Virus genome (UHGV): UHGV-1461890
Length of the DNA stretch: 41,432 bases
Direction: 5' to 3' (one strand)
Source: a virus
Notes under the pieces: generated by a model
What the model saw: the letters and a program-made list of their open reading frames with translations, nothing else
Database searches by the model: none
Told to the model about the DNA's origin: nothing
Translations under genes and position numbers: made by a program
In this document: positions 15,917 to 18,900 of the stretch, piece by piece
How the letters are laid out: each line of letters begins with the position of its first letter
How positions within the stretch are numbered: position 1 is the stretch's first letter

Positions 15917-18900
15917 ATGGGAGCTAAAGATGTATATGAGCAGTTAAAACGAGAAAAACAACAAGGCAATTCTAAAGCCAAAAAAGTCTACGCTCAAATG
16001 ATGCAATCTAAAATAATAGATGAATTCAATTCTCTTATAAAGCATAATTCGGACTTTTACAATAAAACCAAGTCTCGTTTTTATGACGAAGATGACAACT
16101 TTATAGACATCTATCGTTCTGATTCAGAAGATTGGAAAAACACAGCGGTTTCCATGTCAAGTTCTGCTAGAGAAAAGTCTACAAATATAAGAAGTTTGCT
16201 GGATGAATATGGTTCGTATTATGATGCGGATACTGTATCGAGTATGTTAAAAACCCTTGATGAGCATGAAAAATTCTCTACTGACATTGTAAAACAAGCG
16301 GTAGAACAACATGACTATTTTTCCGAGTATAAAGACGAGAATGACTACAACCAAAAGGTTGTTATACCTAAAAATCAAAATGAAGAGTGGGCCTCAGCCA
16401 ATACTGAGGCTCTGAAAACTGAGATTGGCAACCTTGAAACATCTTATAAGGCATATTCAGAACTTAAATCAAAGAGAAATTTAAGAAGTTCTCAGCTTAT
16501 ATCCAACTATATAAAGTCAGGTTATACGAGAGATGAGGCAGTAAAATTAGCCGCTAAAGACAAGGATATTATCGAATACGATAAAAAGTTATCTGTTTAT
16601 GGAGATATGAGTAATGCTGAAAAATCTCTCTCCGAAAAGAAGCAGTTTTACAACAATGCCACTCGTGTTCAGGAAGGCTTATCTTTAAGCGGAATAACTG
16701 ACCCTTCATCCAAGCACTATGACCCAAATTATCTCAAGTATTCAGCAAAAGGTGAGGCTATGGGTGATGAGAAAAACGGTGGTTTTTTTACACCTGATAC
16801 TCAGCGCAAAAACCAAGTGGCTTACCTCCGTAACAATCCCGATATGTTGGAACTGTATGAAGAAACTGCCAACGATGCTAATGGCGCATCATGGGGAACT
16901 TCCGAAAGAATATTACTAGACCAAATTGAATATAAAGCCGCTAAGTATATGACAGATGAAGAGTTTTTAATTTACAATGCCTACTTAGGCAAGGGAGACA
17001 AAGAATCGGCTGATAAATATTTGGAGAGTATAGAGGAGACTTTAACCTCTCGTCAGGGTGCGGCGATTTCTGAACAGCAAGATACTTGGCTTAAAAAACA
17101 ATTATTTAGCGTTTATGCAGGACTCGACCAATGGGAACAAGGCATTATCAGTTTAGGTAACACCGAAGGAAAATATGACTCCCCTACAGGCGTACAGTTT
17201 GCCTCAGGCACAATAAGAGAAGACTTGGGTGCAATCGGTCAAGGTGCTTATGACTTAGGCGTTACTACAGGAAACATGCTCCCATCCATTTTGGTTTCAT
17301 ATCTCACAAGTGGTGTTGGTGGTGCAGTAGGTTTAGGCGCAAAGGCAGCAGGAACACTAGGCAAAGTAGCCGGTGCCGCAACCTTGGGAAGCTCGGCAGC
17401 AGGTAATGGTTATCAGGAAATGCTCAACCTTGGCTATGATAAGAGTCAGGCACAGGCTTATGGCACTCTTGTAGGCCTTTCCGAAGCAGGTCTTGAGTAT
17501 GTATTGGGTGGTATTTCATCCCTTGGTGGTACGGTTTCAGGTGGCATAACTGACAAGGTCGTTACTAAGTTAGTTTCTAACATGGATAAGGCTATCGCTA
17601 AGGTAGCCATTGGCGCAGGTGGTAAACTTGTAGGTAGTATGGTATCTGAATTTGGAGAAGAATACCTGCAAGAAGTATTAGACCCGGTATTTAAAAACAT
17701 AACGCTTAACACCGATGAGGATATAAGGTTATTCTCCTCCGAGGCTCTTTATGCAGGTATACTAGGTGCATTGTCAGCAGGTTTGCTTGAGGGTGGTTCG
17801 AGTATATCAGGTGAGGTTGCAACCTATAAAGCAGGTAAGGATGTTAAGAACACAGGTCAGTTAAGTAACCTTAAAAAGTTCGGCACATCATTTTCTGCTG
17901 ATACCGTTGCATATAAGATTGCAAGTCAGGTTGATGAGAACACCGATGCTTATACCATAGGTCAGCTGCTACATGAAGTGGGCGCAGATAGTTTATCTGA
18001 AGCAAATATAGCTGACATAGTAAAATCTCTTGAGAGGAAAAACATATCTCCCGAACACGCTCAAACCATTGCTGAGTGGTTAAACGCTTCTGTTCAAGGT
18101 GAGGTATTTAATCCTCTTCAGCGATTAGCTTTAAAAAATCCTGATATAGCACAAACCTTTAAGGATGTTATTATAAACCAGAACTCTACAGTAAATCAAA
18201 GGATGCAGAGTTATACCGACATCCTTCAAAATATCGCCAATGAAAAGGAAATTATAAAGGCTAACAAAAGCAAAGCAAAGGCTGAGAAGAAAGCTAATAA
18301 AACCAAAACAACCGAAGAAACAAAAACTACACCTTTTGTTCCTTTGTCTAATGAAGCAATTACTGCTTCTAAGATAGAATCACTAGCAAAAGAACTTGAA
18401 AGCGAAGGTGTATCACCTGAATTGGCTCAGGTTATGGCTCAGAGGAAGGTTTCTGAATCTTCAGAGGGTAAATCTGTTGCCGATACTGAAAATGCTATAG
18501 AGAACAAATTTGAAACCAATTTAGATGGACAAACACTCAACACAAAAACAGGTGATAGTGTTAATGTGTCTGAAATAGCCTCTATAAAAGATGGCAAAAT
18601 GACCTTAAAACTTGACAATGGTGAAACTGTAGATGCAGACGATATTAGTTTTGGTACTGAAGATGAGGGTTTAATCTATTCGACAGTATTAGACATGGGT
18701 GTTAATGCCGCTGTAGCAAACTCTCTTGTAAAAAATTACAGTCCATCGGACAAGCTCTCAGCAAGACAATATGCTCTTGGCATTAAAGAGGCATATAAGT
18801 ATGGCTCTTATGGTATGCCTATAAACGAAATATCTAAAAACGGTTTTGCCGCTGATTTAAGTGAGGCTCAGAGGACTCATGCCTATAACCTTGGCAAATC

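Follow-up and report, generated by a model that had tools for sequence, protein, structure and literature searches.

A conserved helical module near the N-terminus of giant effector-carrying phage proteins, probably homologous to the N-terminal domain of the N4 virion RNA polymerase

Podovirus ejection proteins have been described as "conformational gymnasts" that switch from a soluble to a membrane-bound state (PMC8954989). In phage N4, the isolated N-terminal domain of the virion RNA polymerase (vRNAP), gp50, incorporates into nanodiscs, its residues 224-278 are described as putative membrane-spanning helices, and the domain has been proposed as the inner-membrane anchor of the vRNAP and a part of the ejectosome (PMC13434306); a membrane-tethering role for it was also proposed in a separate study (PMC13492108). 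The polyvalent proteins of phages and conjugative elements surveyed by Iyer et al. 2017 (PMC5512222) are giant, multidomain and linked to packaging, late or conjugation genes, with modular, variable cargo that includes ART-PolyVal domains. In that study the N4-like vRNAPs were always fused to MPTase domains of the zincin type, searches with the N4 N-terminal region recovered N4-like proteins only, and the text describes no Gly-rich, hydrophobic or membrane module, the words "glycine" and "transmembrane" having no occurrence in it. Here we describe a Gly-rich hydrophobic stretch in a giant protein encoded by the virus genome UHGV-1461890, the whole of which (41,432 nucleotides) was analysed and is called the window below. 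The stretch is the hydrophobic core of a five-helix module near the N-terminus of a giant polyvalent protein, and this module is probably homologous, as judged by profile comparisons, to the N-terminal domain of N4-type vRNAPs. The reading that we favor, with a probability of about 0.55, is that it acts as a soluble-to-membrane anchoring and ejection module, N4-like in kind, of an effector-carrying protein. The product of the giant open reading frame (ORF) is presumed, from its gene context and family, to be packaged in the virion and ejected. The ORF and the module are located as follows.

15917 to 27265, + strand: giant ORF of 3782 amino acids (aa) in frame +2, from the ORF list and its translation
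16949 to 17854, + strand: conserved all-alpha N-terminal module, residues 345-646, from the profile search, alignment A3, AlphaFold2, phrog_2206 and hhalign

The initial annotation had singled out positions 17200-17830, equivalent to residues 428-638 of the giant ORF, as a Gly-rich hydrophobic segment, and such a segment is indeed present. Both of the peptides that it quoted lie in frame +2, SGVGGAVGLGAKAAGTLGKVAGAATLGSSAAG at residues 464-495 (nucleotides 17306-17401) and AIGAGGKLVGSMV at residues 563-575, and residues 437-625 form the most Gly-rich and least polar part of the protein, beyond what shuffled sequences give. Gly content peaks at residues 437-496 (15 of 60 residues, or 25%, versus 6.2% protein-wide), a value reached by 0.05% of 2000 shuffles. 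Polarity is lowest at residues 447-499, where four of 53 residues are D, E, K, R, N, Q or H, versus 39.6% protein-wide, and no shuffle was as low. Zippers of the form (G/A/S)xxxGxxx(G/A/S) number 11 in the region when 5.4 ± 2.2 are expected from shuffles preserving the region's own composition (P = 0.014), and 58% of those in the giant protein fall in this 5.5% of its length; the plain GxxxG motif showed no enrichment there (7 observed vs 6.6 expected). On neither strand is there a competing ORF of note, the sole one over the region being an antisense ORF of 84 aa. A DNA-level repeat origin of the Gly-rich stretch was rejected, as no tandem repeat was found in the DNA of the region. Since the segment is strongly conserved across homologues, it is not a product of chance composition. 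An identical protein is present on the ENA contig ERZ27229672.

The real unit that contains the flagged segment is a conserved all-helical module of about 300 residues (approximately residues 345-646), which begins at about nucleotide 16949, some 250 nucleotides upstream of the annotated start. A word-indexed protein search, in which Gly-rich words saturate the candidate list (as they also do when the N4 N-terminal domain is the query), returned only four fragmentary homologues, with position-specific conservation. A profile built from these four fragments and scored against 1.84 billion cluster representatives matched 3025 of them at E ≤ 1e-3 and 1022 at E ≤ 1e-30. Among the best 153 matches, 124 are at least 2000 residues long and 91 at least 3000, and the module starts at a median residue of 230, always inside the first 16% of the chain. 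Nearly all of the proteins that bear it are giant, with the module lying around residues 200-700.

An alignment of 21 diverse family members (A3) revealed fourteen invariant residues (D446, M454, P456, G496, G506, E523, G532, E578, E581, E582, Q585, P590, Y612 and G617), and N453, N497 and S522 are nearly invariant in the family. Four signatures could be read from this alignment: D..TT..NM.PSIL.S, G.SA.GNAY.E....GY...QA..YG.LVGASE..L.YLLGGISKLGG, SE..EEYLQE.L.PVF.N and EEALYSG.LGAL.AG..EG. It also showed that the Gly run of the window protein is in part an insertion of about 10 residues relative to most homologues. In 13 full-length giant homologues, 34 of the 44 invariant columns lie in the module, which makes up about 9% of their length. 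No other part of these proteins is as well conserved as the module, which was detected in 42 of 43 related loci (from a scan of one genome per species), versus 0-13 for other regions. No Pfam or NCBIfam family covers it, no Pfam LPD or PolyVal model does so either, and tblastn of the module against INPHARED phages gave no match, as did megablast with 25 kb of the window. In IMG/VR, more than 100 viral contigs carry the module, the longest being 38-55 kb.

AlphaFold2, run with alignment A3, predicted an all-helical module (mean predicted local distance difference test score (pLDDT) 79.8, predicted template modeling score (pTM) 0.68) with long helices at residues 439-470, 475-504, 509-536, 558-597 and 608-646 and a low-confidence linker at residues 532-561. 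We designate the helical segments A to E.

17255 to 17326, + strand: helix A, apolar, residues 447-470, LGVTTGNMLPSILVSYLTSGVGGA, within the AlphaFold2 helix at residues 439-470
17342 to 17413, + strand: helix B, an apolar Gly/Ala zipper, residues 476-499, KAAGTLGKVAGAATLGSSAAGNGY, within the AlphaFold2 helix at residues 475-504
17456 to 17530, + strand: helix C, residues 514-538, AYGTLVGLSEAGLEYVLGGISSLGG, apolar except for the conserved E523 and E527, within the AlphaFold2 helix at residues 509-536
17588 to 17707, + strand: helix D, residues 558-597, with the acidic signature SEFGEEYLQEVLDPVFKN, from alignment A3 and the hidden Markov model (HMM) and hhalign alignments
17738 to 17791, + strand: helix E, residues 608-625, SEALYAGILGALSAGLLE, a short apolar zipper flanked by Glu, from hydrophobicity, zipper motifs and hhalign

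Helix A is the best candidate in the module for a transmembrane-like segment, and N453 is its sole polar position family-wide. The zipper motifs of helix B begin at residues 478 and 487, and its family polar fraction is near zero except at N497. Helix D is acidic and amphipathic and contains five of the invariant residues (E578, E581, E582, Q585 and P590); helix E has three zipper motifs, a Kyte-Doolittle value of 1.32 over 19 residues and a family polar fraction of zero across residues 610-624. Helices A, B, C and E have hardly any polar residues and show Gly/Ala/Ser faces at i+4 spacing that permit very tight helix-helix packing. A close comparison system for such faces is transmembrane glycine zipper and GAS-right packing, for example in the Gly-rich four-helix Tim17/Tim22/OEP16/NDUFA11 family; the concept of the transmembrane glycine zipper motif is said to go back to Kim et al. 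in 2005. Comparison of the model with the PDB gave no significant match, and the weak matches were mostly membrane helical bundles. The significant matches in BFVD were N-terminal chunks of giant phage proteins annotated as MuF-C, nuclease or PolyVal-ART. The prediction was a confident helical bundle without a significant PDB match, and a recognizable soluble globular fold, which the initial annotation had set against its own proposal, was not obtained.

Several comparisons connect this module with the N4 vRNAP. The module region matches positions 173-455 of phrog_2206, annotated "virion RNA polymerase", with an E-value of 2e-5, and 13 of the 21 diverse family members matched the same profile independently at E < 0.01 (best 6e-8). 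N4 gp50 residues 25-894 map to phrog_2206 positions 5-823, and the phrog_2206 match in the whole giant protein is limited to residues 396-671. When a profile of 14 schitovirus N-terminal domains was aligned by hhalign with a family profile of 152 members, 315 colinear columns were aligned with a score of 49.0 (E 3e-5, probability 73%); for the controls, with E-values of 0.1-0.8, the score was 22.4 (reversed) and 13-21 (eight local column shuffles). This alignment paired PSILVSYLTSGVGG of the window with N4 GLAEGVGSLLGAGPVLRG (from residue 228), GSSAAGNGYQE with the N4-like GAMEAGGAYQQ, SEFGEEYLQEV with the N4-like RETVEEGVQGA, and EALYAGILGALSAG in the helix E region with N4 TQAGLGALYGFGSAG. 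The best motif common to the module and N4-like N-terminal domains is that of helix D (RETVEEGVQ in the latter), on which both the HMM and hhalign alignments center. By the same alignment, helices A and B correspond to N4 gp50 residues 228-300 or thereabouts, and they cover the equivalent of the published putative membrane-spanning helices at 224-278.

The module and the N4-type N-terminal domain (gp50 residues 1 to about 900, and DEV gp71-N) are alike in other respects. Each lies near the N-terminus of a protein of more than 3000 aa whose gene is in the structural module of a podovirus, each is all-alpha and Gly/Ala-rich with marginal Kyte-Doolittle values over 19 residues (about 1.3-1.5), and both have the motifs G.(S/M)(A/E)(A/G)GNAYQ, (S/R)E..EE..Q and GLGAL...(S/G)AG within a colinear homology of about 280-315 positions. 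The module is more compact than its N4 counterpart, however, and lacks the N4 insertions between motifs. Putative membrane-spanning helices and nanodisc entry have been reported for N4 (PMC13434306), whereas in the present protein the indicators of membrane association, the family polarity profile and the octanol scale, are indirect. A separate pairing was seen when the family profile was aligned with the single N4 sequence, in which LGGISSLGG of the window (at about residues 527-560) fell opposite VNTLGGIGALGAGLL at gp50 residues 127-141. The latter peptide is Gly-rich and is also the most hydrophobic 19-mer of N4 (Kyte-Doolittle 1.47), and the N4 N-terminal domain may thus have more than one zipper element of this type.

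The likeness to the vRNAP is confined to this domain. A full-length family HMM gave no signal in N4 gp50 beyond the N-terminal domain, such that homology in the C-terminal parts was not demonstrable, and searches of the whole giant protein against Pfam and PHROGs found no RNA polymerase (RNAP) family. A candidate for the two-barrel RNAP motif of the DxDGD type, LDFDGIEG, was dismissed as non-matching on inspection by eye only. As no polymerase domain was found, the giant protein is not a vRNAP, and what the two have in common is the N-terminal module alone. We found no literature linking polyvalent proteins with ejectosome membrane modules, and the link of an N4-type module to proteins without an RNAP is therefore apparently unreported. 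The ejection proteins T7 gp14/gp15/gp16 and P22 gp7/gp16/gp20 and N4 gp51/gp52 take a route from head through tail to envelope like that expected of the giant protein, but they are separate, smaller, channel-forming oligomers, whereas the module is one domain of a giant effector carrier. Neither the region nor the whole protein has PHROG or Pfam similarity to them.

As to membrane interaction, the family-wide polarity profile is the most telling result. Across 152 homologues, residues 447-499 are essentially apolar save for the conserved N453 and N497, residues 514-538 are apolar save for E523 and E527, and residues 610-624 are fully apolar. A family-wide apolar run of about 50 residues is not the pattern of a water-exposed helical bundle. 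It is consistent with helices embedded in a membrane or, alternatively, with a hydrophobic hairpin in the interior of a soluble bundle that can switch to the membrane. On the Wimley-White octanol scale, where values below 0 are favorable, residues 447-465 have a sum of -3.0 kcal/mol, the most favorable 19-mer of all 3782 residues, and residues 606-624 have a sum of +0.67 kcal/mol. Together with the N4 alignment, the apolar family profile and the octanol minimum support the initial annotation in its view of the segment as a good membrane-interaction candidate, in a phage protein presumed to be ejected.

Downstream of the module the giant protein has further domains, of which three could be placed.

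19238 to 19252, + strand: HELTH (HExxH) motif, residues 1108-1112, with H, E and H almost unchanged across 13 homologues
22478 to 22978, + strand: ART-PolyVal ADP-ribosyltransferase effector domain, residues 2188-2354 (PF18760, E 1.8e-21, above the gathering score)
23474 to 26698, + strand: conserved C-terminal region, residues 2520-3594 (phrog_22978, E 1.2e-184)

The HExxH motif suggests a candidate zincin-like peptidase domain; its region has a weak match to the metalloprotease profile phrog_87 (E 0.014). Pfam has no family for the HExxH region, the middle region, the C-terminal regions or the 393-aa neighbor described below. The C-terminal region was detected in 10-13 of the 43 related loci and the ART region in six; the sole match of the giant protein's C-terminal part was an unannotated 4.8-kb gut phage fragment. 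The cargo of the 13 homologues is varied (ART-PolyVal in six, MuF_C, LPD3 and PBECR3 in two each, and Ntox15 in one), and nucleases and toxins are among the effectors found downstream of the module in the family. From N- to C-terminus, the architecture therefore comprises a conserved module, effector cargo that varies and an end that is semi-conserved, and this combination of conserved module and variable cargo matches the polyvalent-protein class of Iyer et al. 2017 (PMC5512222), the MuF_C, LPD3, PBECR3 and Ntox15 domains of the relatives fitting its PolyVal/LPD repertoire. N4 vRNAP differs in that its cargo is an RNA polymerase, in place of the HExxH domain, unique region and ART-PolyVal domain found here.

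Between the HExxH motif and the ART-PolyVal domain, about 590 residues (approximately 1560-2150; 20597-22366, + strand) were matched neither in any of the 43 related loci nor by any family. This stretch, which includes a CxxC pair (C1652 and C1655), is perhaps a cargo domain peculiar to this phage. Near the C-terminus, well outside the flagged region, is the sole segment of the giant protein above the classical Kyte-Doolittle threshold for transmembrane (TM) helices, a mean of at least 1.6 over 19 residues. This segment, AVGVYCVVQLFAALAESLM (1.74; residues 3533-3551; 26513-26569, + strand), is followed by the acidic run RDDDDEE, and both are in the consensus of the 13 homologues.

The giant gene is situated in a structural block, between tail genes and a fiber gene, and its neighbors encode terminase, a P22-like portal, a Prp protease, a scaffold-like protein, the major capsid protein, tail proteins and a BppU_N/collagen fiber. 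No tube, sheath, tape measure or chaperone genes were found among them, which, with the P22-like portal, indicates a podovirus-like phage. All 43 related loci are in metagenome-assembled genomes of gut Bacillota (Oscillospiraceae, Acutalibacteraceae, Ruminococcaceae, Lachnospiraceae and Christensenellaceae), and the relatives are podovirus-like phages or prophages of gut Clostridia. The conserved order in these loci is terL, portal, major capsid protein, o138, o573, o393 and the giant gene. One neighbor is of particular relevance to the giant protein.

14720 to 15901, + strand: conserved upstream neighbor of 393 aa, a homologue of which is the gene just before the giant one in 18 of 43 loci

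This position immediately upstream in 18 of the 43 loci makes the 393-aa protein a candidate partner ejection protein. It has three repeats of about 33 residues with the motif ADQQWQxxF and no Pfam or PHROG match, and homologues of gp51 and gp52 were not detected upstream of the giant gene.

Elsewhere in the window, a Prp-type cysteine protease (PF04327) is encoded at 7498-7842 (+ strand). The motif [LIM]N[LIM]Q[LFM]F occurs only twice in all six frames of the window, at 7925-7942 and 8945-8962 (+ strand), and each occurrence is N-terminal in its protein, one in the scaffold-like ORF (HLNLQLFGE) and the other in the major capsid protein (KINLQLFAE). From these sequences, Prp-style N-terminal processing of both proteins looks likely; such processing is known for staphylococcal phage 80alpha. 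The tail genes at 13142-14698 and 27317-29203 (+ strand) have siphovirus-associated Pfam names (DUF859, BppU_N and collagen repeats), and set against the P22-like portal and the lack of tube and tape measure genes the tail module looks mosaic. By-eye inspection of ORF translations between 31183 and 41014 indicated an amidase-like lysin (31183-31893), a serine-recombinase-like integrase (32111-33607, - strand), two helix-turn-helix repressor-like ORFs (34441-34866 and 35204-35626, - strand), and RecT-like, SSB-like and C5-methyltransferase-like ORFs. These by-eye labels point to a temperate lifestyle.

How an anchoring module of this kind might work can be outlined as follows. The giant protein would travel in the phage head (the phage being podovirus-like and temperate), with the module as a helical bundle, compact or molten, either there or in solution. 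At infection the protein would be threaded through the tail, after which the apolar, Gly-zipper helices would bind, or enter, the host's cytoplasmic membrane, the host being monoderm. The membrane-bound module, perhaps together with the upstream 393-aa protein, would tether the giant protein where it entered, and the downstream HExxH domain, unique middle region and ART-PolyVal cargo would be exposed to, and act in, the cytoplasm.

A number of observations weigh against this proposal. The Kyte-Doolittle maximum of the module over 19 residues is 1.39 (residues 455-473), below the threshold of 1.6, the family maximum has a median of 1.41 with 11% of members reaching at least 1.6, and simple Hessa sums are at least +4.5 kcal/mol, such that TM helices of the classical type are not borne out. 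(Hydrophobicity is no higher in the N-terminal domain of N4 gp50, with a maximum of 1.47, and of 1.29 inside residues 224-278.) The invariant E523, E578, E581 and E582 lie in or beside the apolar helices, and would be more at home in a protein-protein or ion-binding site than on a helix exposed to lipid. The compact bundle predicted by AlphaFold2 could equally well be that of a wholly soluble, tightly packed domain. The apparent homology to N4 is remote (hhalign probability 73%, about 16% identity), and hhalign of the family profile with the single N4 sequence gave no supporting alignment. The membrane-spanning helices of N4 are themselves a prediction together with a whole-domain nanodisc assay, and not a mapped insertion. 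Packaging and ejection of the giant protein are presumptions from its gene context and family only. Finally, N4 hosts are Gram-negative whereas the present hosts are monoderm gut Clostridia, so that the N4 envelope model is not directly transferable.

Some of these points are what would be expected if the module never entered a membrane and were instead a wholly soluble, tightly packed bundle that functions in structure or assembly, for instance by docking the giant protein to the inner capsid or the portal or by binding the 393-aa neighbor, with Gly/Ala faces that serve only for close, Alacoil-like packing of helices. The confident, compact and helical model, the hydrophobicity below the classical threshold and the invariant acidic and polar residues inside helices would all be consistent with it, and the literature on N4 and DEV gives the vRNAP terminal domains partner-binding roles as well. 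We nevertheless consider a soluble bundle unlikely, at perhaps one chance in four, because many exposed polar positions would be expected in it and some 50 consecutive residues are apolar in 152 homologues save for two Asn. In addition, the model matched no soluble fold and its weak structural matches are mostly membrane bundles, the best octanol-scale 19-mer of the 3782 residues lies in the module (residues 447-465), and the homologous N4 domain associates with membranes experimentally. A more ambitious role is that the module oligomerizes into, or lines, a DNA-conducting channel across the cytoplasmic membrane with its zippers forming the pore, which is the "trans-envelope conduit" of the initial annotation. 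The zipper motifs are enriched, conserved acidic residues could line a pore, and the N4 model puts the gp50 N-terminal domain in an inner-membrane complex with the C-terminus of gp51. However, there was no sign of oligomerization, the channel formers shown experimentally in N4 and DEV are the small gp52/gp51 and gp73/gp72 and not the vRNAP, and few copies per virion are expected (about four in N4; PMC13492108). We regard a channel as improbable, and membrane anchoring is better supported than a trans-envelope conduit.

The segment had also been likened to tape measure proteins, and its composition alone does resemble their short, Gly-rich hydrophobic stretches. A related reading is that of a flexible Gly-rich linker, of low complexity and with no specific fold. 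Homology and genomic context differ from those of tape measure proteins: no tape measure family (PhageMin_Tail, TIGR01760 and others) was matched in Pfam (E ≤ 10), NCBIfam (E ≤ 1) or PHROGs (E ≤ 1), tape measure matches in BFVD were non-significant (E > 0.3), and the locus has a P22-like portal and no tube, sheath or chaperone genes. A linker is incompatible with the strong position-specific conservation and the confidently predicted helices, and the region has no tandem repeat. Both readings were rejected, being effectively refuted by the profiles, context, conservation and helices, and we give them hardly any weight. An anchoring and ejection module continues to be our preferred interpretation.

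We rate these results as placing an N4-type N-terminal module on a different class of cargo, in phages of Gram-positive hosts, and as a large, uncatalogued domain family that extends an existing model. They involve no new principle; a recently proposed one is extended to another cargo class and another type of host envelope. In this group of gut Clostridia phages, which is an abundant one, giant polyvalent proteins take up as much as one quarter of the genome, and the module, as the one universally conserved element of these effector carriers of 3,000-4,000 residues, bears on how they are delivered into cells. The N-terminal domain of the N4 vRNAP is the only comparable domain with experimental membrane data, and the relationship offers a basis for transferring results from N4 and DEV to Gram-positive phages, for defining a domain family beyond those in Pfam and NCBIfam, and for predicting which giant phage proteins are ejected. 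More tentatively, and as an idea that we hold somewhat less probable than its opposite, the module may be a portable, ancient "delivery head" common to the vRNAPs of schitoviruses with Gram-negative hosts and thousands of giant polyvalent effector proteins without an RNAP in Gram-positive gut phages, docking cargo of several thousand residues at the cytoplasmic membrane and possibly aiding its crossing. If this is true, the N4 vRNAP would be one cargo variant of a larger, uncatalogued class of membrane-anchored, ejected giant proteins.

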